Positions 9,826-59,807 of a stretch of DNA of 60,224 bases are shown piece after piece. A model generated the notes under the pieces. It worked only from the letters and a program-made list of their open reading frames with translations. It had not been told where the DNA came from and searched no databases. Position numbers and translations under genes: made by a program. The DNA comes from a virus: the IMG/VR virus record IMGVR_UViG_3300045988_031686. One strand, written 5' to 3'. Numbering within the stretch: the stretch's first letter is position 1; each line of letters opens with the position of its first letter.

Positions 9826-10278
9826 ATGATAACATTCGATATCGATAACAAGGAATATAAGTTAGAGTTTGGCTTTGATGCGGCAGAGAACAAAGACATT
9901 GTCCAGAAGATGTTCGATTACATGACTGGCGCATATATCTACAAGGAAACTGGAAACACAATTACTGCAACATCTAACGGTGCGGCTAAGATGGTGGCTG
10001 ATTACAGCGAAGTATGTCAGATGGCTTTTTATGCCGGATGCTTACAGCACAATGCAGTGTCAAGAGCAGAGGCTAAGACTTTAACAAGAGCATATATTAC
10101 ACAGAAGAGAAAGACAGATAGCAAGTACGGTTATTATCAGTTATTCGAGGATATTAAGATTGCTATGGCGGACGATGGTTTTTTCGAACTGAGCGGCTTG
10201 GCTCAGACAGTAGAGGAGATGAACAAGTCGGCGGCGGAGCAATTGGAGAAGATGCAGAAAGAGAAGTCAAAGAAGTAA
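9826..10278 (+). CDS. Tail assembly chaperone (gpG analogue)
   Basis: 150 aa, acidic, between the major tail protein and tape measure genes. Confidence 0.65.
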   Translation: MITFDIDNKEYKLEFGFDAAENKDIVQKMFDYMTGAYIYKETGNTITATSNGAAKMVADYSEVCQMAFYAGCLQHNAVSRAEAKTLTRAYITQKRKTDSKYGYYQLFEDIKIAMADDGFFELSGLAQTVEEMNKSAAEQLEKMQKEKSKK

Positions 10279-26332: not shown

Positions 26333-26346
26333 CCCTCTCCTCTTTT
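26320..26346. terminator. Bidirectional terminator between convergent genes
   Basis: Stem ggagaggg/ccctctcc followed by tctttt. Confidence 0.55.
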
Positions 26347-26707
26347 ACTCATCTAACAGTTTCTTTGCTATTTCAGCAAGATTTTCCCAGTCTTTGACGG
26401 TTAGCCTTGTTAAGGCTGATACAAATTTTTTCTGGAAATTGTCATCTTTTAAAGCCATCGTCTCAGTGACAAAAGCTCCGATTTCCTGCTCCTTGGTTCT
26501 TGATTTGAACATTTCCCCGATGCCATTCCGAAGCCATTCTTCATTGACGTTAAATTCTTTACATATCAATGCTATAGCTGAATCACTTGGAATACTTCTA
26601 CCCATTTCGTATGTTGCAACAGTGTTTCTTTTCACTTTTATTTTGTCAGCAAATTCTTGTTGCGTCAAATTCAGAGCATTTCTTATCTTCCTAATACGCT
26701 CATTCAT
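26345..26707 (-). CDS. XRE-family HTH repressor (CI-like)
   Basis: IRKIRNALNLTQQEFADKIKVKRNTVATYEMGRSIPS; divergent from a consensus promoter. Confidence 0.8.
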   Translation of the reverse strand: MNERIRKIRNALNLTQQEFADKIKVKRNTVATYEMGRSIPSDSAIALICKEFNVNEEWLRNGIGEMFKSRTKEQEIGAFVTETMALKDDNFQKKFVSALTRLTVKDWENLAEIAKKLLDE

Positions 26708-26749: not shown

Positions 26750-26804
26750 TTGTTGAAAAAATCAACAAAAATATGTTGACAAATGTTTTTTAATGACATA
26801 TAAT
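26750..26804. promoter_or_regulatory. Switch region: perfect palindrome TTGTTGAaaaaaTCAACAA plus a rightward consensus promoter
   Basis: Palindrome at 26750-26768. TTGACA at 26776-26781, 17-nt spacer, TATAAT at 26799-26804. A leftward promoter, TTGATT-17 nt-TAATAT, overlaps the palindrome. Confidence 0.6.
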
Positions 26805-26836
26805 TGTTTTACAATCAACAGAAAAGAGGTGAGAAC

Positions 26837-27511
26837 ATGAACGAACTTGTACATTTAGAACATGATGAAGCTGTATGCAGCAGTTTGGAGGTTGCTGAAA
26901 AGTTCGGCAAAAGACATGACAAGCTGATTTCAGAAATAGAAAGAATGTACTCTGATTTAATCGGAAAAGGGTGTGCCCAAAATGGTGGAGACCCCCTATT
27001 TGTAAAAAGTAGTTACATTCATCCGCAAAATAAACAGGAATATCCAATGTACCTTATGAACCGAGACGGCTTTTCATTATTGGTAATGGGATTTACTGGA
27101 AAGAAAGCGTTAGATTGGAAACTTAAATACATAAACGCTTTTAATCAGATGGAGAATTACATCAGAGAGAAACAGTCGCAGTCTTGGATTGAAACAAGAA
27201 CAGTCGGTAAGCTGTCAAGAAAAGCTGAAACAGATGTATTGAAGCAGTTAGTTGAATATGCCAAACAGCAGGGAAGCGAACACGCTGATATGCTGTATAT
27301 GACATATTCAAAACTGGCAAATAAAACTGTCGGTGTGGCTGATAGAGATACCGCAACCGCTAAACAACTGATGAACTTATCCGTCACAGAAAATATCATA
27401 TTGAAAGTAGTTGAAGAAGGTATCAGCCAACAGCTCCATTATAAAGAGATTTACAAGAATTGTAAAGACCGATTGGCGATAGTCAATCGGTTAGCGTATT
27501 TGACAGTATGA
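26837..27511 (+). CDS. Rha-family phage regulatory protein (copy 2)
   Basis: VCSSLEVAEKFGKRHDKLISEI...YPMYLMNRDGFSLLVMGFTGKKALDWKLKYINAFNQME. Confidence 0.8.
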   Translation: MNELVHLEHDEAVCSSLEVAEKFGKRHDKLISEIERMYSDLIGKGCAQNGGDPLFVKSSYIHPQNKQEYPMYLMNRDGFSLLVMGFTGKKALDWKLKYINAFNQMENYIREKQSQSWIETRTVGKLSRKAETDVLKQLVEYAKQQGSEHADMLYMTYSKLANKTVGVADRDTATAKQLMNLSVTENIILKVVEEGISQQLHYKEIYKNCKDRLAIVNRLAYLTV

Positions 27512-28562: not shown

Positions 28563-28586
28563 AGCTTCACCTCCTTATTGAATAAT

Positions 28587-29408
28587 ATGGAGATTATAAC
28601 ACAAGAAAGGAGAAAAGAGAACTTGAACGAAGTCGAGAAAACAGAGACAAGAACACCGATTGAGATTGCTCTTGACATTGACAATGAGGGTATGACAACG
28701 GCGAGAAAACTTTATGAGTTTTTAGAACTTGCACCACAGCATTATGCAAGGTGGTGTAAGTCAAATATTATTGAGAACGAGTTTGCAGAGGAAAATGTTG
28801 ATTATTGGGCATTCACCATCAATGGGGAATGGGGTGGACAGGCTACAACAGATTACAAGCTCACAGCTCACTTCGCTAAGAAGTTATCCGTCAAGGGCAA
28901 CGGAGAAAAGGCAGAACAGGCAAGGGAGTATTTCACGGTGGTTGAGGAGCGTGTCAAGCAGACGGCTATTGACCGCACCCAGTTGTCGCCACAGTTACAG
29001 CTTATGAATATGCTTGTTGAGAACATGAGCAGACAGGAACTTGAAAGCAAACGACAGGCACAGCAGATAACTAAGGTTGAAAGCACTGTCAATAACATTA
29101 AGGAGATTTTCACACAGCCGATTGGTGACTGGAAAGCGGAGATAAACGCAAGAATCCGTGAAATCTCAATTAAGAGCGGCATTGACTATCAGACGCTTTA
29201 CAACGAGATGTACGGACGGCTTGAAACCATAGCCCATTGTAGCCTAAAGAGATTACAGGACAACAAGACAGCGAGAATGGAAAAAGCCGGAAACACCAAA
29301 ACAGCAATCAGAGAGGGTACTACCAAGATTGCAATTATATACGAAAAGCCACAGCTTAAGGCGATATTTGAGGATATTGTTAAGCGGTATGCAATGGCTT
29401 ATGCGTAA
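28587..29408 (+). CDS. AntA/AntB-type antirepressor
   Basis: TARKLYEFLELAPQHYARWCKSNIIENEFAEENVDYWAF is typical of the AntA/AntB N-terminal domain. The start codon is uncertain. Confidence 0.65.
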   Translation: MEIITQERRKENLNEVEKTETRTPIEIALDIDNEGMTTARKLYEFLELAPQHYARWCKSNIIENEFAEENVDYWAFTINGEWGGQATTDYKLTAHFAKKLSVKGNGEKAEQAREYFTVVEERVKQTAIDRTQLSPQLQLMNMLVENMSRQELESKRQAQQITKVESTVNNIKEIFTQPIGDWKAEINARIREISIKSGIDYQTLYNEMYGRLETIAHCSLKRLQDNKTARMEKAGNTKTAIREGTTKIAIIYEKPQLKAIFEDIVKRYAMAYA

Positions 29409-44728: not shown

Positions 44729-46090
44729 ATGGAATGTGTTGCGTACATGAGAGTATCAACGGAGAAGCAAGCCGAAGAAGGTAACGGATTGGAAAGTCAA
44801 AAGAGGGATATTCTCGACTACTGCTCCAAGAATGAGCTGATTGTGACAGATTGGTATGTTGACGATGGTTACACCGGGGCAAATATGAACCGCCCTGAGC
44901 TTCAAAGGCTTGTTGCTGACTGTAAGCATAAGAGAATATACTGCGTGGTGGCTTTTAAGCTCGACAGATTATCAAGGAATATGATTGACGGTCTATATAT
45001 GATTGAGAAGATATTCCAACCGAACGGCGTACAGTTTAAGTGCGTACACGATAGTGTAAGCTATGATAGCCCGATGGAACAGGCTTATACTCAGATGATG
45101 GCAGTTTTTGCACAGCTTGACAAAAATACAATGATGTTGCGTATGCGTGGCGGTATGCTTGAACGTGTCAAGCAAGGTTACTGGTCTGGCGGCGGCAACT
45201 TGCCTTATTGCTATTCTTACGACAAAGAACAAGGCATATTAATACCCATTCCAGAACGAGCAGAACAAGCAAACAAGGCACTTGAACTTTACATAAGAGG
45301 ATATTCGGACGTAAAAATCTGTAAAATATGTGGGTATAAAGGTGAGAAAGTTGTCAGGCAGATACTCACAACACCAGTAAATGTCGGTATGATACCATAC
45401 AAGGGCAAGATATATCAAGGTTTGCATGAGCCTATATTCAACAAGGAGCAGTTTGAACTTGCGCAACAGTTGAGAAAATCTCGAAGCTGCAATAAAGCAA
45501 GTTGCATAACTGAACCTAACCTATTGACCGGGCTGTGTTATTGCGGTGTGTGTGGATGTGCCATGCGATATCAGAAGTGGACGCACGGAAAGCACAAGAT
45601 ATATTGCATGTCAAGAAATAAGGCTATGTCTTATCTGCCAAACCACAACCCGGACTGCAATAATTCACTCGAATGGGCGGACGATATAGAGGAGCAAGTC
45701 GAGAAAGAAATGCTCAAAATATCGCTTGACTTATCATCGTACAAGCCTAAGGAAAAGGAAACAAAGCTTGATATTATGCAGTCACAGCTTGACAAGGAAC
45801 AGGCGAAATTGAAAAGGCTTTACGGCTTGTATGCGGATGGCAACGACACAGTGTTGAGCATGATTAAAGAGCTTGAAGCAAATATATCTGCGATTAAGGA
45901 GAATATATCGGAAGAACGGAAAAACTTTTCCGTCAAGCAGAAGAACACTATTGTATATGATGAAATAAAAAAACTTGCCGATGTTTGGGACAGCATCGAC
46001 AAGAAGCAAAAAAATATGATACTTAAAACTATAATTGACAAGATAATCATTGTCAATGGCAATATTGAGATACAGTTAAAGAATTTTTAG
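44729..46090 (+). CDS. int: Large serine recombinase (integrase)
   Basis: YMRVSTEKQ (catalytic Ser motif), FKLDRLSRN, recombinase domain, Cys cluster CYCGVCGC...C, C-terminal coiled coil. Confidence 0.9.
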   Translation: MECVAYMRVSTEKQAEEGNGLESQKRDILDYCSKNELIVTDWYVDDGYTGANMNRPELQRLVADCKHKRIYCVVAFKLDRLSRNMIDGLYMIEKIFQPNGVQFKCVHDSVSYDSPMEQAYTQMMAVFAQLDKNTMMLRMRGGMLERVKQGYWSGGGNLPYCYSYDKEQGILIPIPERAEQANKALELYIRGYSDVKICKICGYKGEKVVRQILTTPVNVGMIPYKGKIYQGLHEPIFNKEQFELAQQLRKSRSCNKASCITEPNLLTGLCYCGVCGCAMRYQKWTHGKHKIYCMSRNKAMSYLPNHNPDCNNSLEWADDIEEQVEKEMLKISLDLSSYKPKEKETKLDIMQSQLDKEQAKLKRLYGLYADGNDTVLSMIKELEANISAIKENISEERKNFSVKQKNTIVYDEIKKLADVWDSIDKKQKNMILKTIIDKIIIVNGNIEIQLKNF

Positions 46091-48777: not shown

Positions 48778-48792
48778 AAAGGAGAATTGGAC

Positions 48793-49599
48793 ATGGCTTT
48801 TAAAAAAGGAATGACGGCATATAATTTTGATGATTTAACAGGCAAGACATTTAACAGGCTAACAGTTATTAAAAGAGTATATAGGAATAATAGTAAAAAA
48901 GTATATTGGAAATGCAGATGTGTTTGCGGAAAAGAAACAATTGTTGAAAGTTCAAAACTCAAAGGGGGATATACCAAAAGCTGTGGGTGTCTTAACGATG
49001 AAAATCGAAAACGCCATATAAATGAACTGACTACGCATAATATGAGTAACAGCAAATTGTTCGAGGTTTGGTGTGCCATGAGAAGAAGATGTGAAAACAG
49101 AAAAGATAAAGCGTATAAGTGGTATGGTGCTAAAGGCGTCAAAGTCTGTGGTGAATGGCAAGGAGAAGGCGGTTTTCAAAATTTTTATAATTGGTCTATA
49201 AAAAATGGGTACAAAGAAAATTTATCTATAGATAGAATAGATTTTAACGGAAATTATGAACCGTCAAATTGTCGCTGGATTACACAAAAAGAGCAATGTA
49301 ATAATACAAGCAGAAATATTTATGTCGATTACTGTAGAGAGAGAAAGACGTTAAGTGAATTATGTGAGATGTATAATCTTAAATACGGAATTATGTACCA
49401 TAGAATTTTTGATTTAGAGCTTCCATTTGGAATTGCTATGAATTTAAGTGGATGCCAAAAAGCAAATTACAACGGCAAAGAAACTGATTTGAGATATATA
49501 TCAAAAGTAGAAGGCATCGAGTATAAAATTTTGTTAAGAGAAGTATTGGTAAATAAAAAAGATATAGAACAAATTATATCAGAATATGGAGGAAAATAA
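48793..49599 (+). CDS. AP2/HNH-associated DNA-binding protein (homing-endonuclease-like family)
   Basis: GKTFNRLTVIKR...WKCRCVCG...SCGC and WCAMRRRCEN...YGAKGVKVCGEW...LSIDRIDFNGNYEPSNCRW. Confidence 0.55.
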   Translation: MAFKKGMTAYNFDDLTGKTFNRLTVIKRVYRNNSKKVYWKCRCVCGKETIVESSKLKGGYTKSCGCLNDENRKRHINELTTHNMSNSKLFEVWCAMRRRCENRKDKAYKWYGAKGVKVCGEWQGEGGFQNFYNWSIKNGYKENLSIDRIDFNGNYEPSNCRWITQKEQCNNTSRNIYVDYCRERKTLSELCEMYNLKYGIMYHRIFDLELPFGIAMNLSGCQKANYNGKETDLRYISKVEGIEYKILLREVLVNKKDIEQIISEYGGK

Positions 49600-50332
49600 A
49601 TTGCATATCGAAAGAATACACAGAATGATTGAATGTCTCACGGAAAAGACGCTGTCCGAACTTGATAAAGGCATCGAAAACGTAAATGTTGAGGAAATGT
49701 CTGAAGCTGTGGATATGATTAAGGATTTATGCGAAGCTGAATATCGTGCTGTTATTGTCAAGTCGATGAAGAAGGCTGATGAAGAGGAAGAAGAGTACAA
49801 CAAAGAACTTCTCAGAATGCTCAAAACCGAATATGGCGAAGAGGGTGGCAGACGCTACTACGATGAATACCGCTATATGCGTACTGGCAGGTACGCACCA
49901 AAAGGCAAGGGCAGTTATGTAGGCAGACGTGGTTATGAGGAACCGCCATATTGGCACAGATACCCGGGCGATATGACGGATATGGATTATGACAGCATAG
50001 AGCGCATGAGAGACATGGATAGATTGAGCCGGGGCAAAATGTATTACACCGACATGTCAGACCGCATGGGAATGATTGACCAGCCGAGAAGCGGCAGCTC
50101 TACGGAACGTGATATGCGTGAGGGCAGAAGCGGCATAAGCCGCAAGCATTACATGGAAGCTAAGGAACAGCACAAGGCTAACACCCAGCAGGACAAGGAT
50201 GCGAAAATGCAGTCGCTTGACGAGTACATGAGGGAGTTGAGCGCTGATATGACGGAGCTTTTAACCGACATGACACCTGAGGAACGCACAATGTTAAAAA
50301 GCAAGATGTCAGTGCTTATGACCAAGATTTGA
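49586..50332 (+). CDS. R/Y/D/M-rich low-complexity protein
   Basis: 248 aa with the central stretch GRRYYDEYRYMRTGRYAPKGKGSYVGRRGYEEPPYWHRYPGDMTDMDYD. Confidence 0.45.
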   Translation: MEENKLHIERIHRMIECLTEKTLSELDKGIENVNVEEMSEAVDMIKDLCEAEYRAVIVKSMKKADEEEEEYNKELLRMLKTEYGEEGGRRYYDEYRYMRTGRYAPKGKGSYVGRRGYEEPPYWHRYPGDMTDMDYDSIERMRDMDRLSRGKMYYTDMSDRMGMIDQPRSGSSTERDMREGRSGISRKHYMEAKEQHKANTQQDKDAKMQSLDEYMRELSADMTELLTDMTPEERTMLKSKMSVLMTKI

Positions 50333-50379
50333 TTTTTAGAGGTAGGGGCAGAAATGCTCCTACCATTGTGAGGTATAAC

Positions 50380-50700
50380 ATGCTTACAATCAACGGCATT
50401 AACTGGAACTTAATATTCGTCAACAATTCAAGCCCCGACTTATTGCGTTCAGACGGCACTACAAGCCTTGCTGTGACCGATTGGAACCGCAAGAGTATAT
50501 TTGTATCACTAGCACCTAGAGGGGATTATTTAAGACGCGTAATCGCTCACGAACTATGCCATGCGTTTTGTTTTAGCTATGGCGTATCAATGCCGATTGA
50601 GCAGGAGGAATACCTTGCAAACTGGATAAGCTTGTACGGAACTGATTTGATTTACTTGCTTGATAATATTATGTCAAGCTTATCTCGGAGGGCAGTATGA
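50380..50700 (+). CDS. Small HExxH metallopeptidase-like protein (ImmA/SprT-like)
   Basis: RRVIAHELCHAF; ATG 50380 after GTGAGGT. Confidence 0.5.
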   Translation: MLTINGINWNLIFVNNSSPDLLRSDGTTSLAVTDWNRKSIFVSLAPRGDYLRRVIAHELCHAFCFSYGVSMPIEQEEYLANWISLYGTDLIYLLDNIMSSLSRRAV

Positions 50701-50837: not shown

Positions 50838-51275
50838 TGCAAAAATTTTTAATCGCCCCCACCAATGGAAATGAAAAATAAAAAATCGAAGTCAAATTCT
50901 TGCGAAATTTGGCTCCGATTTAGTGTCATTTTGTCTAATATTCTCAATATTTTTCAAAAAATTTCCCTAAAATTTTCGGGTCAACATTTTTGGTACGCCC
51001 CTATACCCGAAACGCAAAATATAAAAACCGATTTACGATTTTGTCAAAATTTGGTTCTGATTTGGTGTTGTTTTTGAGCCAAAAACAACTCTGTATGACA
51101 GCGGGACCAGTAGAATGTCACACCCAAAGTCGCCCGGCTCTGCCTATGACAACGAAGTTAGGCACAACAAACAGACCACCAAACAGCATCACGTTACAAG
51201 CTGCCGCTCATTAAGGGTGCAGTTGTCCGCTTGATGATAAAATAGCACTTCGATTTTAATTTGTCAAGGAACGAC

Positions 51276-51305
51276 AAAAAGAGAACTTCTGAAAGTTCTC
51301 TTTTC
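51276..51305. terminator. Bidirectional intrinsic terminator; ends the reverse-strand operon
   Basis: 10-bp stem aagagaactt/aagttctctt with T-runs on both strands. Confidence 0.7.
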
Positions 51306-51312
51306 AAACAAA

Positions 51313-51639
51313 TTATAGACCATAAAACTCTAGAATACGTTTTTTTCGCTCTTCTGAAACCTCATCATTAATTTTATAACGAGCTAGCCTGTTGTCGTCC
51401 TCCTGTATTTTTTCAATGAAAATCCAGTCGCATCCGGCAACAACTGAAACGTGCTGGCTGCATTCCCATGAACGTCCGATAACTGCATACATCAACGTCT
51501 CAACTTCTTTTTCAGGCATGTTGCAGACGTAAACAGCGCGCCCGTAAGCGTTACTTGACACGATTGTGCCAAGTAATTCAGTGGTCGGAGCTGCACACCC
51601 TCCTAAGTTGATAATATCAAGCCTTTTTTCAAAACTCAT
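51313..51639 (-). CDS. Hypothetical protein (reverse-strand operon, gene 3)
   Basis: ATG 51639 lies 8 nt after GGAGG. Confidence 0.55.
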   Translation of the reverse strand: MSFEKRLDIINLGGCAAPTTELLGTIVSSNAYGRAVYVCNMPEKEVETLMYAVIGRSWECSQHVSVVAGCDWIFIEKIQEDDNRLARYKINDEVSEERKKRILEFYGL

Positions 51640-51689
51640 TTCTAATACCTCCATATATTTAATTATCTAGCCGACTTTATCGGCTGAAA

Positions 51690-51735
51690 AGTGACGGACG
51701 GAATCGAACCGCCCACGTTGGCACCTGCCGTCACT
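51690..51735 (-). ncRNA. tRNA-like minihelix A (acceptor stem plus canonical T-arm; no D arm or anticodon arm)
   Basis: Reverse-strand sequence: AGTGACG-GCAGGTGCCAACGTG-GGCGG-TTCGATT-CCGTC-CGTCACT. 7-bp acceptor-like stem and a T-loop GTTCGATTC. Confidence 0.5.
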
Positions 51736-51738
51736 TGA

Positions 51739-52014
51739 CTATTCCGCCAAAATAGTTCTAGCCATATTAAACACCCAACGCCTGTTACGACTATGGTGTT
51801 TAAAATCGCCGTCTTTGGCGATTATTCGTCCGGTGTTCTCGTATTTTAACTGTATGACAGTTAAATATCTGTCAAGCAGCTCATCCGGGCATTTTAAACA
51901 CTCGATAGCGTTTTCTATCGTGAATTTGTCGCTACTGCGGTATACACCCTCGATACGAACACCCTTCTCAGCTTCTAGCCTTTCCAATTCTTGTATAAGC
52001 TCTCCTTTTGTCAT
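51739..52014 (-). CDS. Hypothetical protein (reverse-strand operon, gene 2)
   Basis: 91 aa with RBS GAGGAGG. Confidence 0.55.
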   Translation of the reverse strand: MTKGELIQELERLEAEKGVRIEGVYRSSDKFTIENAIECLKCPDELLDRYLTVIQLKYENTGRIIAKDGDFKHHSRNRRWVFNMARTILAE

Positions 52015-52063
52015 AAAAAATCCTCCTCATAATGTTAAATTTTTTAAATCCCCTAAGGGAGAA

Positions 52064-52115
52064 AAGCAACCCGGGGAATCGAACCCCGGCAGTGCGCCGC
52101 CTCCGGCGGTTGCTT
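52064..52115 (-). ncRNA. tRNA-like minihelix B (acceptor stem, mini-hairpin, canonical T-arm)
   Basis: Reverse-strand sequence: AAGCAACC-GCCGGAGGCGGC-GCACTGC-CGGGG-TTCGATT-CCCCG-GGTTGCTT. Confidence 0.5.
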
Positions 52116-52120
52116 TTTAA

Positions 52121-52348
52121 TCAGTCTGCCCACTCGACACGTTTTAATTCACCGGTTCTCGTGCTGTGGTACCAGCTCTTACCGCCTACACTGAACGTCA
52201 GCTCGAACCATGTACATCTGTCTTCGTGTTCGTGGTCGTAACTGCCCTCGAGTACTGAGATTAGGTTTGCAGACGGAGTAAAACCGAACTGTTTTTTAAA
52301 GGCTGCCCTTATTGTATTTTTAACGTCTACAAGCTGTAAATCTGTCAT
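52121..52348 (-). CDS. Hypothetical protein (reverse-strand operon, gene 1)
   Basis: 75 aa with RBS AGGAGG. Confidence 0.55.
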   Translation of the reverse strand: MTDLQLVDVKNTIRAAFKKQFGFTPSANLISVLEGSYDHEHEDRCTWFELTFSVGGKSWYHSTRTGELKRVEWAD

Positions 52349-52438
52349 AATTGACTACCTCCTTGTTTTTGGGTACAACAAACACATGTTCTGTATCTGC
52401 TCTATTTCCCTTTCGTTGATATTATAATAGCATATATA

Positions 52439-52543
52439 ATGCACTTATACAATATGCAACATTCACAAATAATGCACTTATATGTTGTGCAAAGTGTATA
52501 ATGCACTTATAAACTTGACAACCTCATGCACTTATATTATAAT
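52439..52543. promoter_or_regulatory. Divergent control region: four ATGCACTTAT boxes plus a consensus promoter
   Basis: Boxes at 52439, 52472, 52501 and 52526. TTGACA at 52515-52520, 17-nt spacer, TATAAT at 52538-52543. Confidence 0.65.
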
Positions 52544-52574
52544 GTGAGCATTAAAAGACAGGAGGTATTATTAT

Positions 52575-52781
52575 ATGAATAAAATAGACGAGCCTAAAAC
52601 ACCACAGTCACAGCGTGACGCTGTACGGCGATACGAGAAGAACAACGACCGTATTAATGTCATATTTCCAGCAGGGACCCGCGCCAAGATGGCGGAGCTT
52701 GGAATTGACAAGCCGGGCGCATTCATTAAGGAGGTAGTTGCTGCCGAGCTTGGGCGAATTGAAAAGTATAAAAATAATTAA
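52575..52781 (+). CDS. Arc/CopG-like small DNA-binding protein (candidate binder of the ATGCACTTAT boxes)
   Basis: 68 aa. SQRDAVRRYEKNNDRINVIFPAGTRAKMAELG fits an RHH-like strand-helix-helix pattern. Confidence 0.5.
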   Translation: MNKIDEPKTPQSQRDAVRRYEKNNDRINVIFPAGTRAKMAELGIDKPGAFIKEVVAAELGRIEKYKNN

Positions 52782-53453: not shown

Positions 53454-53461
53454 TAAAAACA

Positions 53462-53495
53462 AGCCCCGGCGAGGTAATCGTTCCGGGGCTATTTT
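53462..53495 (+). terminator. Intrinsic terminator
   Basis: 8-bp stem agccccgg/ccggggct followed by atttt. Confidence 0.7.
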
Positions 53496-53663
53496 CATGC
53501 TGTAAAGCGCCTATTAAATTAAATAATAATGGCTCCTGCCAAGTCACGACCGATTTAACAACGATACCAAGCGATTAACGGTCGGCACTTCCAGCTCTCA
53601 CAGCATACATGATTTACGGCTGGTTGTCAACGTATCGGATAGTATATTGATGTATTTTAAGCA

Positions 53664-53807
53664 TTGACAAGTCCACGGCTAACTGGTATTATCATAGACG
53701 GGCGAGGGCGACTAACTCATGGCAGTATCGTAGATAGCACATTGACAACCGCATATCTCACACACCTAAAAATTTAGACCAATAACAATCCGTTATGTGG
53801 TCTTTTT
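53664..53807 (+). ncRNA. Candidate ~108-nt small RNA transcription unit (promoter to terminator)
   Basis: TTGACA 53664-53669, 17-nt spacer, TATTAT 53687-53692. Terminator stem gaccaataac/gttatgtggtc at 53777-53802, then ttttt. No credible ORF inside. Confidence 0.35.
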
Positions 53808-53989
53808 GTCGTTCTGTTAATATCTTGACAATGTATCTTATTTAATCCCATGTCTTTAAGTTATTTATGTATCGTATATTATTATAAAATTTACTGTCAT
53901 AGATTAAGAGCCTGAGCCCTTATATGTATTTATTAATATATAGGGCTGCCGGGCACATGGACACAATCCACATCATTACATTAACGTGA

Positions 53990-54075
53990 TAAAATCCGTA
54001 TACAAACCGTATACATTCCGTTACCAAAGTGTAGCCTAGAGAAGATTAGATAAGATTAGACAAGGAAAGATTAAT
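53990..54075. repeat. Copy B of the dispersed non-coding element (partner at 20780-20848)
   Basis: aaaatccgtatacaaaccgtatacattccgttaccaaagtgtagcctagagaagattagataagatta. Confidence 0.55.
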
Positions 54076-54277
54076 GAGAATGTATAAATAAATAATCGGT
54101 TTTTAAAAGACGTATATAATTATATACTGTATATGCGATTAGTACCAAAGTACTACGCATAAATACCCCAAAGTTATATTTTATATACTTTATGTATATA
54201 GTCATGTCACCAATCATGTGATATGATAATCTCATGTGTGAGAGAGATTAAGATTATGATTTGGAGGTGATTATATT

Positions 54278-55278: not shown

Positions 55279-55965
55279 ATGAATGAGTTGAAGATTTTTG
55301 GGAAAAAGGATTTTTGTAAGATAAAGGATTTTCAAAAAGAAAAGCCAAACTCGGTTGTAGGGATTATATATGTGATAGGATATAACAACAGTTTTTGCAA
55401 AATTGGTATGTCTTCGTTGCCGGCAGATAGAACATTGGCTTTACGTCATTATATTTCTGACTATATGCAGATGTCAGTTGACAAGATAGCTATAAGCAGC
55501 TGGCACACAAATTACAAGCAAAACGAAAAACTATTACATGAAAATTTTTCAAGTTGTCGTATACCGAATACTGAATTGTTTTCATGTGATATCCAAGAAG
55601 TTACTGAATTTATACAAAATGATGGCATCAAGTTTGAAGATAATTCTGAAGAGATTTTGAAGAATATACAAAGAGGTAGCGATGCAGTTGTTGAATTTGG
55701 AAAAGCTATCATGCGGGGCGATTTTGAGCAGAAAAGCGAAAATACTTTTGATGAAAAATACAATAAAATGTTAAAAGAGTCAAATAAATTAACTGACGAA
55801 ATCCTTTTTTCGGCGAGGTTTTTAGTTGATAGCTATAAAGAAGCATTAGAAACTCGCATGGAAAAAGAACTGAATGCACTTAAAGGGTATTTTGTTGATA
55901 AATGGATACAACACGGACTAATAGATAAAGAAAGTGTTTTTGATTCACAGCAAAAAAATGACTGA
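55279..55965 (+). CDS. T5orf172 / GIY-YIG-superfamily nuclease-domain protein
   Basis: GIIYVIGYNNSFCKIGMSS...R...EKLLHENF...R...ELF. Confidence 0.6.
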   Translation: MNELKIFGKKDFCKIKDFQKEKPNSVVGIIYVIGYNNSFCKIGMSSLPADRTLALRHYISDYMQMSVDKIAISSWHTNYKQNEKLLHENFSSCRIPNTELFSCDIQEVTEFIQNDGIKFEDNSEEILKNIQRGSDAVVEFGKAIMRGDFEQKSENTFDEKYNKMLKESNKLTDEILFSARFLVDSYKEALETRMEKELNALKGYFVDKWIQHGLIDKESVFDSQQKND

Positions 55966-55992: not shown

Positions 55993-56367
55993 ATGACAGA
56001 CAAAGAATATCAGCAGTTGGCAATGAGAACCAACGATGGGCTAAACACAACAAGGCTCACGAATGCAATATTCGATTGCCACACCATAACCATAGCACAG
56101 TTAATAAATGGCGCATTAGGGCTTACTGGTGAAGCAGGTGAGGTATCAGACCTCGTGAAGAAAGGCATATTTCATGAAAAAGGCATAGACTTAGAGCATC
56201 TCAAAAAGGAGCTGGGCGATTGCACTTGGTACTTGGCAATGATATGTGACGCTTGCGGATTTACGCTTGATGATGTCATGCAGACAAACATTGATAAGCT
56301 CAAGGCACGTTATCCTAAGGGTTTTGACACATACAGGGCTAACAACAGGGCGGAGGGTGATATATGA
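55993..56367 (+). CDS. mazG: MazG-like nucleotide pyrophosphohydrolase
   Basis: LTGEAGEVSDLVKK...ELGDCTWYL...NIDKLKARYPKGF. Confidence 0.8.
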   Translation: MTDKEYQQLAMRTNDGLNTTRLTNAIFDCHTITIAQLINGALGLTGEAGEVSDLVKKGIFHEKGIDLEHLKKELGDCTWYLAMICDACGFTLDDVMQTNIDKLKARYPKGFDTYRANNRAEGDI

Positions 56368-56824: not shown

Positions 56825-56896
56825 TGGGCTATCGTCAAGTGGTAAGGCACAGCACTTTGACTGCTGTATTCGTGGGTTCGAATCCCACTAGCCCAG
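56825..56896 (+). tRNA. tRNA-Gln (anticodon UUG)
   Basis: Acceptor stem tgggcta/tagccca, anticodon stem cagca/tgctg, anticodon loop cttTGac with anticodon TTG, T-arm gtggg-ttcgaat-cccac. No encoded CCA. Confidence 0.85.
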
Positions 56897-57124
56897 TTTG
56901 GTCATGCAAATGACCATCGGACTTTTAAGTCATGTTGTTTCATAAACTCCACCTATTAGCGGAATGCTGTTAAGAGCCGTCACAAGGCTCGATAGGTTTT
57001 CGGGTTTTGTTGCTGTAGTTACCCGGCGCTCCATAACACGCTAAAAGAATAGCAACAGTGCGGACAACATAAGCCGGGAAGCTTGCGACGCTGCTGGTTC
57101 TCGCTGTCGCCCAGTCTGCACTTA

Positions 57125-57198
57125 CGGGATATAGTTCAGCTTGGCAGAACGCTCCACTTGGGATGGAGAGGTCGTAGGTTCAAATCCTGCTATTCCGA
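57125..57198 (+). tRNA. tRNA-Pro (anticodon UGG)
   Basis: Acceptor stem cgggata/tattccg, D-arm gttc/gaac, anticodon stem ctcca/tggag, anticodon loop ctTGGga, T-arm gtagg-ttcaaat-cctgc. Confidence 0.85.
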
Positions 57199-57300
57199 CT
57201 GCCTCGAATGAGGCGCAAAGCAATACCCCTTTTGATTCAATTTTCGTGCAGCCTTGCTACCGCTCGGCAAGTAAAACAAAGAGCGGACATGACGCATTAG

Positions 57301-57372
57301 TCAAGTGGTTAAGACACAGCCTTTTCACGGTGGAGACGTGAGTTCGATTCTCTCATGCGTCACTTAGACGTA
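57301..57372 (+). tRNA. tRNA-Glu (anticodon UUC), with mismatches
   Basis: Acceptor stem gacgcat/atgcgtc, anticodon loop ttTTCac, T-loop ttcgatt. One A-G mismatch in the anticodon stem and one U-U mismatch in the T stem. Confidence 0.65.
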
Positions 57373-58418: not shown

Positions 58419-58669
58419 ACGAATTTTTAAAATTTTTTGACGATAAAGCAAAAGACTTCCCTATGCACCTTCAAATCACTTATAGTAAAATATGCGATTG
58501 GAATATTTTGATTTATAAAAAAGGCTGTGCTGATGATTATCCTGAGGCTAAGCATGACGGCGAAGATGTAATAATTGTCAATGAAAGTGATTGCGACATG
58601 GAGCTTTGCTTTGCTAAGGCACATGTAGAGCTAAAAGAATGGCTTTCGGAATTTAATGGCGGATATTAA
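58415..58669 (+). CDS. Hypothetical protein
   Basis: 84-aa coupled ORF. Confidence 0.45.
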   Translation: MNEFLKFFDDKAKDFPMHLQITYSKICDWNILIYKKGCADDYPEAKHDGEDVIIVNESDCDMELCFAKAHVELKEWLSEFNGGY

Positions 58670-58681
58670 GGCGGTGTAAGA

Positions 58682-59044
58682 ATGAAAGAAACTATTTTAT
58701 ATATTTCTGATACTGAAAAAGATATCGTTAAGTACTTAGAAAGCTTTCAAAGATATTTAGAAGGGCATGAAATTTTATGTTCATTAGATAAAAAAAATAG
58801 AATTTTAAAAACGCAAAATTACGATATTGTCGGCAAAAACATTTTCGGTAATTTGCTTGGGGCTGGCTACGGATATTGCGTATATTACTGTTTTTCAGAT
58901 AAGATTAGTAAATTTCAATATTTTGCAACGCAAAGAAAAAGAATGGAAGAAATTTTGATGCATGTAAGAAAAGGGGCAAAAGAAATATCGGAATATGGCA
59001 TTTTGTGTATGGTTGTGTACGGGTTGGAGGATTGGGAAATATGA
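58682..59044 (+). CDS. Hypothetical protein
   Basis: 120-aa ORF. Confidence 0.45.
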   Translation: MKETILYISDTEKDIVKYLESFQRYLEGHEILCSLDKKNRILKTQNYDIVGKNIFGNLLGAGYGYCVYYCFSDKISKFQYFATQRKRMEEILMHVRKGAKEISEYGILCMVVYGLEDWEI

Positions 59045-59238
59045 AACATCAAAAAGAATGGCACACTTGCGATAGGTGCGGTGCAGAAATAAACGAAAAT
59101 GAAAGAAGTATGTTTCTGAAAAAGGTTTATAGAATAAGCGGACTTTTAGTCAGAAAATATGCTTATGAAAAGGTAAATGCCTTTGACTTATGCCCTAAGT
59201 GCAGGAAAGATTTTGAGAGGTTTATGAGGAATGAATGA
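59041..59238 (+). CDS. Zinc-ribbon protein
   Basis: CDRCGAE...CPKC. Confidence 0.5.
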   Translation: MKHQKEWHTCDRCGAEINENERSMFLKKVYRISGLLVRKYAYEKVNAFDLCPKCRKDFERFMRNE

Positions 59239-59527
59239 TTGTTCAAAATGTAAATTCAGCGAAGAAGATTATATTTTCGATGAAGAAACAGGAGACGAAT
59301 ACCCCTTTTACATTTGTAGCAAAGGAAACGACACAAGCTTAGATTATGAGTGTAAAGATTTTAAGGAATATAAGCCAAAGAAATATAAAGAAAAAGATAC
59401 AAAGTGCGATAAATGTGAGCATCTTGAGATTTGCCTTGATAAGGGCAATGTTATTGATTGCAAGACAGTTTGCGATACAAGAAGTCATTATATAGGTGGC
59501 AGAATGGGGTGTGTTAAAAATGAATGA
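59231..59527 (+). CDS. Cys-rich protein
   Basis: Begins MNDCSKC; nine or more Cys residues. Confidence 0.45.
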   Translation: MNDCSKCKFSEEDYIFDEETGDEYPFYICSKGNDTSLDYECKDFKEYKPKKYKEKDTKCDKCEHLEICLDKGNVIDCKTVCDTRSHYIGGRMGCVKNE

Positions 59528-59807
59528 TTGCAACTTAACTACATGCCGCTACAACAAAGACAATAAATGCACAAATAATGAAAAGAGAAATATAAAGCAT
59601 ATCGGCGATGAGGATGACAAGCCGATAGAAACATCTGAATTACACGATATGACTATTGGTGTTGATGTTTCTGTTGATGCAGTTAATGAGTACGCAAAAT
59701 CAATCTTAGGAAGATACCCTAAAGACAATATAGAGTTTTCAAGAGCTTTAGCAGTGAAAGTCCTAGAGGAAACAAAATCATTAGCGAATAGTGAAGAAAA
59801 GGGGTGA
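59520..59807 (+). CDS. Hypothetical protein
   Basis: Begins MNDCNLTTC; its ATG overlaps the end of the upstream gene. Confidence 0.45.
   Translation: MNDCNLTTCRYNKDNKCTNNEKRNIKHIGDEDDKPIETSELHDMTIGVDVSVDAVNEYAKSILGRYPKDNIEFSRALAVKVLEETKSLANSEEKG

Follow-up and report, generated by a model that had tools for sequence, protein, structure and literature searches.

We analysed a 60,224-nt stretch of viral DNA (IMG/VR record IMGVR_UViG_3300045988_031686), hereafter the window, in which three small genes form an operon on the minus strand:

52348-52121, minus strand: gene 1, 75 aa (from the ORF list; the same product is independently called in public assemblies)
52014-51739, minus strand: gene 2, 91 aa, 'c0', a conserved operon marker in the phage clade
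51654-51313, minus strand: gene 3, 113 aa from the first ATG (from the ORF list)
51307-51275, minus strand: intrinsic terminator closing the operon, AAAAGAGAACUU-UCAG-AAGUUCUCUUUU followed by a U run (from the sequence)

Searches of Pfam, PHROG and PADLOC gave no known family for the 75-aa gene, and none of the three operon proteins was matched in Pfam, PHROG, PADLOC or PDB sequences. Homologues of the 91-aa protein fall into 143 protein clusters, all at least 62% identical; four helices are predicted, and the AlphaFold model (pLDDT 74) had no PDB fold match at E < 0.001, with no family found. For gene 3, the 108-aa start (ATG 51639) is more likely since the first ATG overlaps the RBS, and independent gene calls also give 108 aa. 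The terminator at 51307-51275 is an example of a real terminator in this phage. In the 430-nt gap downstream of the operon, no Rfam match was obtained and the fold was unremarkable. The earlier note had described this as the only reverse-strand operon, a description that needs qualification: another minus-strand gene exists, a CI-like HTH repressor at 26345-26707. The window also encodes a serine recombinase (44729-46090) and the phage is temperate. It belongs to a clade of ~55-60 kb temperate gut phages, the host of which is probably Lachnospiraceae, judging from MAG bins alone.

Each of the two gaps between the operon genes contains a tRNA-like minihelix followed by a short hairpin; three genuine tRNA genes lie on the opposite strand of the window:

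52114-52064, minus strand: element B, tRNA-like minihelix, 51 nt
52114-52108 with 52071-52065, minus strand: acceptor-like stem of B, 7 bp, AGCAACC paired with GGTTGCT
52107-52089, minus strand: linker of B, 19 nt, with mini hairpin CCGCC-GGAG-GCGG
52088-52072, minus strand: T arm of B, with a T stem of 5 bp (CGGGG 52088-52084, CCCCG 52076-52072)
52083-52077, minus strand: T loop of B, TTCGATT (RNA UUCGAUU)
52064, minus strand: position 73 of B, T (RNA U)
52060-52049, minus strand: trailer hairpin of B, UCCC-UUAG-GGGA, starting 4 nt past position 73 (from the fold)
51735-51689, minus strand: element A, tRNA-like minihelix, 47 nt
51735-51729 with 51696-51690, minus strand: acceptor-like stem of A, 7 bp, AGTGACG paired with CGTCACT
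51728-51714, minus strand: linker of A, 15 nt, with mini hairpin GGC-AGGU-GCC
51713-51697, minus strand: T arm of A, with one G-U pair
51713-51709 with 51701-51697, minus strand: T stem of A, 5 bp, GGCGG and CCGTC
51708-51702, minus strand: T loop of A, TTCGATT (RNA UUCGAUU)
51689, minus strand: position 73 of A, T (RNA U)
51685-51669, minus strand: trailer hairpin of A, AGCCGAU-AAA-GUCGGCU, starting 4 nt past position 73
56825-57362, plus strand: three genuine tRNA genes, Gln-UUG, Pro-UGG and Glu-UUC (ARAGORN; Rfam 55-64 bits)

Element A begins 3 nt past the TAG stop of the 91-aa gene, and element B 6 nt past the TGA stop of the 75-aa gene. Both have the make-up of a tRNA half, with a 7-bp acceptor on a 5-bp T stem, U54 U55 C56 R57 A58 and the pair G53-C61, and neither encodes CCA. 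The predicted folds are the minimum-free-energy structures, with z-scores of -2.2 (A) and -2.8 (B) for the elements alone and -3.7 (A) and -3.0 (B) with the trailer hairpin included. The sequence GGTTCGATTCC, with at most one mismatch, occurs three times in the window, with copies in both elements, against 0.38 expected, and none of 100 shuffles reached three. Scanning both strands of the window for this structure returned exactly five acceptor-plus-T-arm units, namely the three real tRNAs, A and B; the part between acceptor and T arm measured 40-42 nt in the real tRNAs versus 15 and 19 nt in A and B. When a covariance model was run without filters over the 60 kb, A (64.1 bits, E 3.7e-14) and B (56.1 bits, E 4.7e-12) were the sole matches. 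The reading of two minihelices between the minus-strand genes, each with an acceptor-like stem closing a T arm, was thus borne out by fold, scan and covariance model. The accompanying statement that D and anticodon arms are lacking holds insofar as a 15- or 19-nt linker stands in their place, but that linker is itself folded, forming a mini hairpin of 3-5 bp, possibly a D-loop remnant, whose tetraloop includes GG (AGGU in A, GGAG in B). In both elements the base at -1 (A) is able to pair with U73, and the stem of B can be extended to 10-11 bp by pairing AAAA with UUUU. Element B is flanked by an A tract on its 5' side and a U tract on its 3' side.

Downstream of the minihelices, the arrangement claimed in the earlier note was found after both elements: TTC, hairpin, AU-rich spacer and the RBS GGAGG follow A, and TTC, hairpin, A/T-rich spacer and the RBS GAGGAGG follow B. 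The parallel that it drew with the window's own tRNAs also holds, each of the three being CCA-less and followed by 3 nt and then a short hairpin, as in the minihelices. Among 189 minihelix variants from related phages none encodes CCA, and positions 74-75 are mostly UU or CU, like those of the phage's own CCA-less tRNAs. Across this family the hairpin starts within nucleotides 1-5 in 81% of 146 distinct trailers, compared with 14% in shuffles, and 88 different hairpin sequences are represented. The A-type trailer hairpin is kept in relatives, where loop and stem show G/A and A/G changes.

Several known identities were considered for A and B and rejected. ARAGORN reported a 94-nt 'tRNA-Ala(ggc)' at 51689-51782; this is an artefact: its 5' part coincides with the end of the 91-aa ORF, and where the upstream gene of a relative is unrelated, the minihelix alone is retained. 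At the Rfam gathering level the window yielded the three real tRNAs alone. Neither element is a canonical tRNA (RF00005; cloverleaf, at least 29 bits): at E ≤ 10, A aligned to tRNA-Sec with 18 bits and 35 positions deleted. Apparent parent tRNAs, with acceptor matches at zero distance, turned out to be the minihelices themselves, put out of register by pairing with a 5' strand from far upstream. The match of B to mascRNA-menRNA (RF01684) reached 20.7 bits (E 0.3), far below the gathering threshold of 42.5. A tmRNA tRNA-like domain is not indicated either, since ARAGORN called none and tmRNA models matched only 17-nt T-arm fragments. Neither A nor B had an Rfam match to the ribozyme families Hammerhead_II (RF02276), Twister-P5 (RF02684) or Pistol (RF02679); the window contains no ribozyme match at the gathering level, and none was seen at E ≤ 10 in 51200-52600.

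We compared the minihelices across related phages. The operon itself had no blastn or tblastn match among 50,697 phage records. By terminase the closest annotated relatives are Dulem virus 39 and Clostridium phage Maintenon, which carry real tRNAs and no minihelix. The 189 sequence variants, found in one phage clade, differ in their stems, and every family member has the exact 7-bp plus 5-bp stack. In an alignment fitted to the model, 96.7% of 508 cells are paired, 10 of 12 base pairs show changes on both sides, and the covariation score is 0.629, compared with 0.224 in shuffles (0/500 reach 0.629) and at most 0.18 with the partners slid. The compensatory changes in relatives for which the earlier note had called were therefore present, although they lie mostly between and not within sub-families, so that the covariation shows maintained geometry more than stepwise compensation. 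About 31 G-U cells are tolerated, a pattern that is sensible for the sense strand alone. The T loop is UUCGAUU in 39 of 44 distinct rows from loci retrieved by protein homology. GG occurs in 115 of 131 distinct linkers, as against 81.6 ± 3.9 in shuffles, and the mini hairpin of element B shows a compensatory change from GCCG/CGGC to GCUG/CAGC in relatives. Linker length forms a series from type D2 to type D, 28 nt to 15 nt. There is no G3-U70, and neither the pairs 1:72, 2:71 and 3:70 nor the discriminator is conserved across families.

In 94 loci, the interval from -1.5 to +2 kb around the 91-aa gene holds 132 minihelices on the operon strand and five on the opposite one, with up to three copies per operon. 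They start between -10 and +37 nt from the upstream stop codon, with a one-base overlap in 40 of 101 cases. The gene that immediately follows an A-type element is always a homologue of the 113-aa gene, irrespective of the gene before the element. Relatives L087, L122 and L025, without a trailer hairpin, have 5-8 U, while E-type elements have no U tract after the stem, position 73 being followed by CUAC. Class II elements are preceded by a terminator-like hairpin and U5; A and B belong to class I.

The same slots are also taken by self-cleaving ribozymes. An Rfam scan of 60 related loci at the gathering level identified 36 Hammerhead_II, one Pistol and one Twister-P5, all on the operon strand. 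In the slot immediately following the 91-aa gene a minihelix is present in 64 loci, a hammerhead in L090 (2260-2328, its start lying within the stop codon) and a twister in L091 (4274-4333), and directly before this gene a hammerhead is present in 41 loci and a B-type minihelix in 12, counts which leave ~40 upstream and 27 downstream slots unassigned to a class. At least one module, minihelix or ribozyme, exists in 90 of 94 loci, and most loci are mixed. According to its consensus structure, Hammerhead II cleavage leaves the stem I hairpin at the start of the downstream RNA. Minihelices and ribozymes occupy equivalent positions, which by analogy suggests an equivalent role.

Comparison of mosaic variants of the operon revealed that homology spans the stop codon, minihelix, hairpin, spacer and RBS, and is lost at either the start codon that follows or the stop codon that precedes. 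The same module of minihelix, hairpin, spacer and RBS, ~100 nt in total, flanks many unrelated genes. No promoter was found between the minihelix and the next start codon, nor is there room for one; the downstream genes therefore need read-through, and the minihelices are unlikely to be efficient terminators. As the joint at which unrelated small genes are swapped, the module would act as a context-independent expression insulator for a shuffling operon.

Based on these data, we consider it reasonably probable, though well short of certain, that A and B are RNA punctuation signals cleaved in trans, which split the mRNA into single-gene pieces. The two elements would be transcribed within the three-gene minus-strand mRNA, and each would fold like a tRNA reduced to its acceptor and T arm, forming a coaxial stack of 12 bp with a canonical T loop, on which the GG of the linker probably docks like G18/G19 of the D loop. 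Host RNase P is predicted to cut at +1, 3-6 nt after the upstream stop (5' of 51735 and 5' of 52114), and RNase Z, in the absence of an encoded CCA, would cut after position 73 (3' of 51689 and 3' of 52064). In precursors without CCA, the RNase Z of B. subtilis cleaves on the 3' side of the discriminator; such precursors are also substrates of RNase P, which is the first to act if the 5' leader is long (PMC1874595). The polycistronic RNA would thereby be divided into single-gene mRNAs, new RNA starts being expected at AGTGACGG and AGCAACCG. Each downstream mRNA would begin 3 nt ahead of a stable hairpin that should protect the resulting 5'-monophosphate end against 5'-dependent decay (RNase J/Y in Bacillota). 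A minihelix RNA of ~47-51 nt would be released and could receive CCA, in which case the 3' ends would read CCGTCCGTCACTT+CCA for A and CCCCGGGTTGCTT+CCA for B. Host enzymes would do at the minihelices what hammerhead, twister and pistol do alone in the same slots. A processing or punctuation role had been among the suggestions of the earlier note, and it gains strong comparative support from a structure that covaries on the transcribed strand and adjoins stop codons, and from ribozymes in the same slots. Against it, after the RNase P cut, the mRNA upstream of a class I element such as A or B would be left without a protective 3' hairpin, and pairing of A(-1) with U73 and extension of the B stem would disfavour cleavage because RNase P and RNase Z prefer single-stranded flanks.

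Other functions were weighed at the RNA level, among them the decoy role that the earlier note had suggested. The released minihelix could be the functional product, a stable and possibly CCA-tailed non-decoding tRNA mimic that titrates or decoys acceptor-end-modifying toxins and defence effectors, the CCA-adding enzyme, RNase P or T-loop modification enzymes, with processing as its biogenesis route only. Consistent with such a product, the T loop is UUCGAUU in 168 of 189 minihelices and in only 50 of 158 real tRNAs of these phages, a comparison partly biased by pattern-based retrieval; the linker GG is conserved, operons carry several copies, and the operon is a mosaic of small ORFan genes, the kind that often holds counter-defence functions. 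We nevertheless consider it unlikely, as acceptor stems and the discriminator vary freely between families and so leave no conserved aminoacylation identity, anticodon nucleases could not be decoyed by an RNA without an anticodon arm, and the ribozymes in the same slots release no tRNA-like RNA, so that cleavage, not the product, would be the shared function. A slim chance attaches to the idea that the excised minihelices mature, by U54/Psi55 modification and CCA addition, into abundant anticodon-less tRNA mimics that decoy or sponge host factors reading the acceptor and T arm, such as toxins or defence effectors which cleave or modify the 3' ends of tRNAs; if true, the element would be of dual use, an mRNA punctuation mark and an RNA-based counter-defence. 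Just as improbable as a mere decoy is an uncleaved structural RNA that serves as a leaky terminator, a pause site, or a 3'-end or intercistronic stabiliser blocking exonucleases. A consensus scan did flag the T arm of B plus GUUGCUUUUC as terminator-like (A was not flagged), U73 is followed by 2-3 more U in many elements, 5-8 U are present in the three relatives named above, and an A and a U tract flank B. The U tract is only 3-4 nt in most members, however, and absent in the E type, the true terminator of the operon is a plain hairpin with a U run, genes without a promoter of their own follow the elements, and class II elements are already preceded by a terminator-like hairpin and U5. Nor would a terminator or a barrier account for the retention of the T-loop sequence, G53-C61 and the strict 7+5 geometry.

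Explanations in which the RNA fold is a historical accident fare no better. The elements might be recombination linkers acting at the DNA level, kept because they favour homologous exchange of gene cassettes in the manner of the PeSL motifs of T4-type phages, given that homology breaks exactly at the flanking start and stop codons and that the module adjoins unrelated genes, or neutral tRNA relics, for which the D2-to-D linker series would suggest progressive shrinkage from something larger. DNA homology, however, cannot select for an identical geometry and T loop on differing stems; G-U pairing ties the structure to one strand, the minihelices are distributed 132:5 between the strands, and the trailer hairpins are kept as structures across their 88 sequences. 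A decayed tRNA, which the earlier note had offered as one possibility, does not suffice as an explanation: both acceptor strands are present and several independent stem families keep the 7+5 geometry, the acceptor stem of a minihelix recurs in none of the full-size tRNAs of the fetched loci, and up to three copies occur per operon. Such an accidental origin is accordingly unlikely; a recombination role is compatible with an RNA function and probably exists in addition to it. Even less can be said for att-site scars, in which integration would have left behind the 3' half of a host tRNA gene. The 3' ends of tRNA genes are integration sites of many temperate phages, this phage is temperate, as its serine recombinase indicates, and relatives lie on contigs of 230-295 kb; the integrase is, however, a serine recombinase, both acceptor strands exist and the stems vary by compensation, and the 2-3 copies per operon are co-oriented with the genes, 5-7 kb from the integrase. 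We regard this origin as next to impossible, and the same evidence removes it as a sufficient explanation where the earlier note had allowed for it.

Trans-cleaved punctuation signals, our preferred reading, would give the locus a wider meaning. The slots present a natural swap, in which hammerhead, twister, pistol or a minihelix dependent on host enzymes is accepted, and from this interchange we argue that cleavage between cistrons is the selected function. Whether the ends are a cyclic phosphate and 5'-OH or a 3'-OH and 5'-phosphate seems irrelevant, which speaks against ligation or circularisation models. If the model holds, these phages recruit the tRNA-maturation machinery for mRNA punctuation, a practice documented in organelles and vertebrate lncRNAs, with no case from a phage operon in the literature searched. 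The ~100-nt module of cut site, 5' hairpin and RBS resembles an insulator that would permit gene shuffling without an altered expression context, and synthetic biology arrived at the same design with ribozyme and tRNA spacers. Since Rfam misses the minihelices and ARAGORN miscalled one as a tRNA with a long insert, such elements may confuse phage annotation.

Among known systems, the t-elements of plant mitochondria are close in design; they carry a GGTTCRANYCC T-arm motif, and cleavage by RNase P on the 5' side and RNase Z on the 3' side is followed by addition of C, CC or CCA to the released element (PMC1920247). Like A and B, they are non-decoding, with an acceptor-like stem and a T-arm motif, and lie at mRNA borders (Forner et al. 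2007, PMC1920247); our analysis places A and B with them in T-arm motif and fold and in their position at sense-strand cistron borders, and cleavage would be a further shared trait. The t-elements are organellar and usually cloverleaf-like with ~70 nt, whereas A and B are phage-borne, 47-51 nt long and anticodon-less. Unlike the phage modules, t-elements are neither repeated and shuffled as a module nor interchanged with ribozymes, and a trailer hairpin is not a fixed part of them; we interpret the resemblance as analogy without sequence ancestry.

Clustered hammerheads are known to flank prophage genes, one such prophage being from Clostridium scindens, and a role in processing long phage transcripts has been proposed for them (Perreault et al. 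2011, PMC3088659), while the function of ribozymes clustered near small prophage genes has been described as largely elusive (PMC6765202). These prophage ribozymes share with the minihelices the slots, the sense strand and the neighbourhood of small variable genes; both begin at the upstream stop, and in both cases the downstream RNA would start with a hairpin. Ribozymes cut themselves and leave a 2',3'-cyclic phosphate and a 5'-OH, whereas the minihelices, lacking a catalytic core, would need RNase P and RNase Z and would leave a 3'-OH, a 5'-phosphate and a free tRNA-like RNA.

A similar division of labour is found in the MALAT1 (mascRNA) and MEN-beta transcripts, where the RNase P cut makes the upstream 3' end and the RNase Z cut and CCA tail follow. 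As with the minihelices, mascRNA (RF01684), the best though weak Rfam match of B, is a tRNA-like element embedded in a long transcript; it belongs to a vertebrate nuclear lncRNA and keeps a short anticodon stem, whereas the minihelices have no anticodon arm. In animal mitochondrial tRNA punctuation and in synthetic tRNA-gRNA arrays, too, a tRNA between cistrons marks the sites of RNase P and RNase Z cleavage, but these are decoding tRNAs, and the minihelices have no anticodon arm and no other evident role. The PeSL cassettes of T4-type phages resemble the modules in combining a conserved intergenic motif, ORFan neighbours and mosaic junctions (PMC2839356, PMC4122927), and differ in being promoter and terminator stem-loops, where the modules described here would consist of a processing signal, hairpin and RBS with no promoter. 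Phage substrates of RNase P include the precursor of the C4 antisense RNA of P1/P7 and the M3 RNA of phi80 (PMC11143913). C4, M3 and E. coli operon mRNAs are non-tRNA RNAs that RNase P processes through acceptor/T-like mimicry, as it would the minihelices; being either individual regulatory RNAs or poorly defined sites of enterobacteria, they contrast with the repeated family of canonical T-arm minihelices between cistrons seen in this phage clade.

The operon is composed of three small genes on the minus strand, and the same three genes were found by independent gene calls in public assemblies. Each of its two intergenic gaps starts with a tRNA-like minihelix, A or B:

52348-52121, minus strand: 75-aa ORF, operon gene
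52114-52064, minus strand: element B, beginning 6 nt past the TGA stop
52014-51739, minus strand: 91-aa ORF (c0), operon gene
51735-51689, minus strand: element A, beginning 3 nt past the TAG stop
51654/51639-51313, minus strand: 113-aa ORF, more likely 108 aa, operon gene
51307-51275, minus strand: canonical hairpin-plus-U terminator closing the three-ORF unit

The acceptor-like stem has 7 bp, AGUGACG/CGUCACU in A and AGCAACC/GGUUGCU in B. In tRNA numbering, both elements contain a 5-bp T stem with G53-C61, the T loop UUCGAUU and U73, and CCA is not encoded. The linker that replaces tRNA positions 8-48 (15 nt in A, 19 nt in B) holds a mini hairpin of 3-5 bp with a GG-containing tetraloop. A second hairpin starts 4 nt past position 73 (51685-51669 for A, 52060-52049 for B), followed by an A/U-rich spacer and a GGAGG ribosome-binding site. 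On the plus strand, the complement of the B mini hairpin (52096-52110) reads GCCGCCUCCGGCGG then UUGCUUUUUAA, an arrangement found only in the B type that resembles a terminator for antisense transcripts entering the operon. Family and defence-system comparisons gave no assignment for any of the three operon proteins, nor did a structure comparison for the 91-aa protein.

The window is the genome of a siphovirus-like temperate phage, encoding terminase, portal, capsid and tape measure proteins as well as a RecT/SbcC-type recombination module and a serine recombinase. The earlier note regarded the operon as the only one on the reverse strand, but a CI-like repressor is also encoded there, and with its neighbors it likely forms the lysogeny switch:

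26345-26707, minus strand: CI-like HTH repressor, adjoining the Rha and AntA-type regulators
26804-27511 and 28578-29408, plus strand: Rha and AntA-type regulators

The terminase shares 53% identity with its Dulem virus 39 counterpart and 41% with the one from Clostridium phage Maintenon. Based on homologs of the 91-aa protein in MAGs assigned to Jutongia, Faecalimonas, Eubacteriales and Bacillota, and on contigs of 230-295 kb, the hosts are probably Lachnospiraceae or related Clostridia, which belong to Bacillota. The operon neighborhood encodes an HNH endonuclease (48787-49599), a T5orf172 (GIY-YIG-like) protein (55279-55965), a MazG pyrophosphohydrolase (55993-56367) and a weak M78/ImmA-like peptidase (50329-50700). 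Between the operon terminator and convergent plus-strand genes lies a gap of ~430 nt (50840-51270) with no convincing ORF; relatives have this gap too, in conserved form, and there it shows up as a cluster of spurious 'ORFs'. Its minus strand carries sigma-70-like sites (TTGACA-17-TATTTT, 51267-51239; TTGACA-18-TATATT, 51047-51018); there was no Rfam match in it, and the fold z-score was -1.4. Another stretch of ~820 nt (53454-54277), between the 131-aa and 209-aa genes, contains only very short ORFs.

Folding returned the proposed structures of A and B as the minimum-free-energy folds (z -2.2 to -3.7). The T-arm 11-mer occurs 3 times in the window against 0.38 expected, and a structural scan of both strands found five acceptor-plus-T-arm units in 60 kb, namely the three real tRNAs, A and B. 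A covariance model built from relatives, run unfiltered on the window, scored A at 64.1 bits and B at 56.1 bits, with no other match. In the Rfam scan, A and B matched no family at threshold; the best sub-threshold matches were mascRNA for B (20.7 bits) and tRNA-Sec for A (18 bits). ARAGORN called a 94-nt tRNA-Ala(ggc) at 51689-51782 on the minus strand, with its 5' half borrowed from the end of the 91-aa ORF; since relatives with unrelated upstream genes retain the minihelix alone, this call is an artefact. A and B are neither tRNAs nor members of any Rfam family.

To place these elements among related phages, the 91-aa gene was used as a query, retrieving over 110 IMG/VR contigs, each about 50-62 kb long, and the 113-aa gene retrieved six. 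Almost all retrieved contigs carry minihelices on the operon strand, so that the elements reported in the earlier note are extended to a large family of 189 distinct sequences in several sub-families, with different stems (GUGACG, GCAACC, GGCAAGC, GCUAAUA, GCUUGCU, CGCGUG and others) and linkers of 5 to 28 nt. In an alignment fitted to the model (81 hits, 44 distinct rows), 96.7% of the cells were paired and 10 of 12 pairs had changes on both sides. The covariation score was 0.629 compared with 0.224 in shuffles (reached in 0 of 500) and at most 0.18 when partners were slid by 1-3 columns; the covariation was mostly between sub-families, and it demonstrates that different sequences keep to one exact 7+5 geometry and an invariant T loop. 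G-U pairs are common, and the structure therefore belongs to the sense strand. The T loop UUCGAUU is present in 39 of the 44 distinct rows from protein-retrieved loci. GG is present in 115 of 131 distinct linkers (82 ± 4 in shuffles), which fits a minimal mimic of the D-loop G18G19 that closes the tRNA 'elbow'. None of the 189 variants encodes CCA, and positions 74-75 are chiefly UU or CU, like the CCA-less tRNAs of the same phages. Among 146 distinct trailers (the stretch 3' of position 73), 81% have a hairpin starting within 5 nt, compared with 14% in shuffles, and these hairpins have 88 different sequences. Elements of context class I (A, B, C and D types) abut the stop codon; those of class II have a terminator-like hairpin plus U5 immediately on their 5' side. 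The family is confined to a sub-clade, since a minihelix is present in neither Dulem virus 39 nor Maintenon. The tRNA arrays of relatives at six loci (L097, at 9902-10010, L130, L131, L135, L147 and L204) contain conserved tRNA-like units that ARAGORN does not call; in these, the acceptor stem (AGCGGUA/UACCGCU) is perfect and ~72 nt separate it from the T arm. Another operon slot (L219:10568-10625) is occupied by a Y-shaped element with a 5-bp outer stem, a 6-bp inner stem and a 7-nt loop, AUCACUA, unlike a T loop. UUUUA and a hairpin come next, the same order as in a minihelix module, and the element may be either a degenerate minihelix or an additional type of module.

In distant c0 loci without a minihelix, a conserved motif containing CUGAUGA was spotted. 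Rfam scans of 60 related loci at gathering thresholds revealed 36 matches to Hammerhead_II (45-69 bits, gathering score 37), one to Pistol (49.8, gathering score 34.5) and one to Twister-P5 (38.0, gathering score 37.6), all on the operon strand and in intergenic gaps of the same small-gene operon (L090:2260-2328, L091:4274-4333, L091:3180-3244, L013:2756-2824, L001:2560-2628 and about 30 more loci). None of these three ribozymes was found by Rfam in the window itself.

Occupancy of the slots flanking c0 in 94 loci
Directly after c0: minihelix 64, hammerhead 1 (L090), twister 1 (L091), unclassified 27, cut off 1
Directly before c0: minihelix 12 (including the window), hammerhead 41, twister 0, unclassified 40, cut off 1

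The L090 hammerhead starts within the c0 stop codon, as the C-type minihelix does. In the region from -1.5 to +2 kb around c0, minihelices number 132 on the operon strand and 5 on the opposite strand; for hammerhead-pattern matches the counts are 103 and 0. At least one module is present in 90 of the 94 loci, mostly of mixed types; eight loci, including the window, have two minihelices and no ribozyme. A second hammerhead II variant lies directly upstream of c0 in L009 (2915-2978), with the same motif in L087 and L088; its core is intact, and loop I (GCCCC) likely forms a pseudoknot with the 3' tail (GGGC). At 33 bits it falls just short of the Rfam gathering score (37) and would thus go unnoticed in annotation pipelines.

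Hammerhead, twister and pistol ribozymes each cut RNA at a fixed site. Since cutting is their one action, the most plausible reading is that an element taking their place in slot after slot marks a cut site too. In a tRNA, the part recognized by the CCA-adding enzyme and by RNases P and Z is the acceptor/T-arm half with its canonical T loop. For B. subtilis it is documented that RNase P accepts precursors lacking CCA and precedes RNase Z if their 5' leader is long, whereas cleavage by RNase Z 3' of the discriminator requires the absence of CCA (PMC1874595). Based on this recognition and the CCA-less pathway, RNase P would cut at +1 (5' of 52114 and of 51735) and RNase Z past position 73 (3' of 52064 and of 51689), setting free a minihelix of 47-51 nt. 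The downstream mRNA would start 3 nt ahead of a stable hairpin, which may shield the new 5' end against 5'-end-dependent decay. The 3' product of Hammerhead II similarly starts with the stem I hairpin, as read from the consensus structure line of the Rfam match. The ends left by ribozyme and minihelix would be chemically different, yet the two alternate in the same slots, which suggests that what counts is the break itself, rather than any joining of the products by ligation or circularisation. The nearest annotated relative, Dulem virus 39, encodes an RtcB RNA ligase (L212:10460-11665; record 58459-59664), an enzyme for joining 2',3'-cyclic-phosphate to 5'-OH ends; no RtcB was found among the window ORFs scanned. 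The suggestion in the earlier note that A and B may be punctuation signals for mRNA processing is supported by strong comparative evidence, namely family conservation and ribozymes in the same slots.

Some features do not favor cleavage: an A residue at position -1 is able to pair with U73, and the stem of B in the window is extendable via AAAA and UUUU, both of which are expected to make cleavage by RNase P and RNase Z slower; class I cleavage would also leave the upstream mRNA without a 3' hairpin. The minihelices may instead be terminators, as the T arm of B plus its U tract was flagged terminator-like; however, the operon ends in a real terminator that is a simple hairpin, the elements have short U tracts, and the downstream genes have no promoter. 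It is also possible that the released RNA itself functions as a decoy or sponge, for which the near-invariant T loop is suitable, although the ribozyme interchange argues against this as the primary function.

In addition to processing, the modules may act at the DNA level. Phage pairs with a common c0 and a different next gene are near-identical across the end of c0, minihelix, hairpin, spacer and ribosome-binding site, and diverge at the start codon of the next gene; whatever gene precedes the A-type module, its conservation sets in at the upstream stop codon. Since homology spans the module and breaks at the flanking start and stop codons, this ~100-nt unit is the joint for the exchange of small ORFan genes. 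Such a role leaves the RNA-level constraints unexplained, yet it is compatible with them.

Clustered hammerheads around variable genes are known in prophages, including one of the Lachnospiraceae member Clostridium scindens, and it has been proposed that they divide long phage transcripts into mRNAs the length of a gene (PMC3088659). The roles of bacterial ribozymes are still termed largely elusive (PMC6765202). No description of tRNA-like elements alternating with clustered prophage ribozymes was found in the literature searched. The interchange provides independent evidence on the long-standing question of the purpose of clustered phage ribozymes, and makes it directly testable. In its mode of working, the minihelix can be likened to the plant mitochondrial t-element (PMC1920247) and to the prophage ribozyme clusters. 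As a joint between ORFan genes, the module is similar to the PeSL cassettes of T4-type phages (PMC2839356, PMC4122927); these cassettes carry a promoter and a terminator, whereas the minihelix module would have a processing signal in their place.
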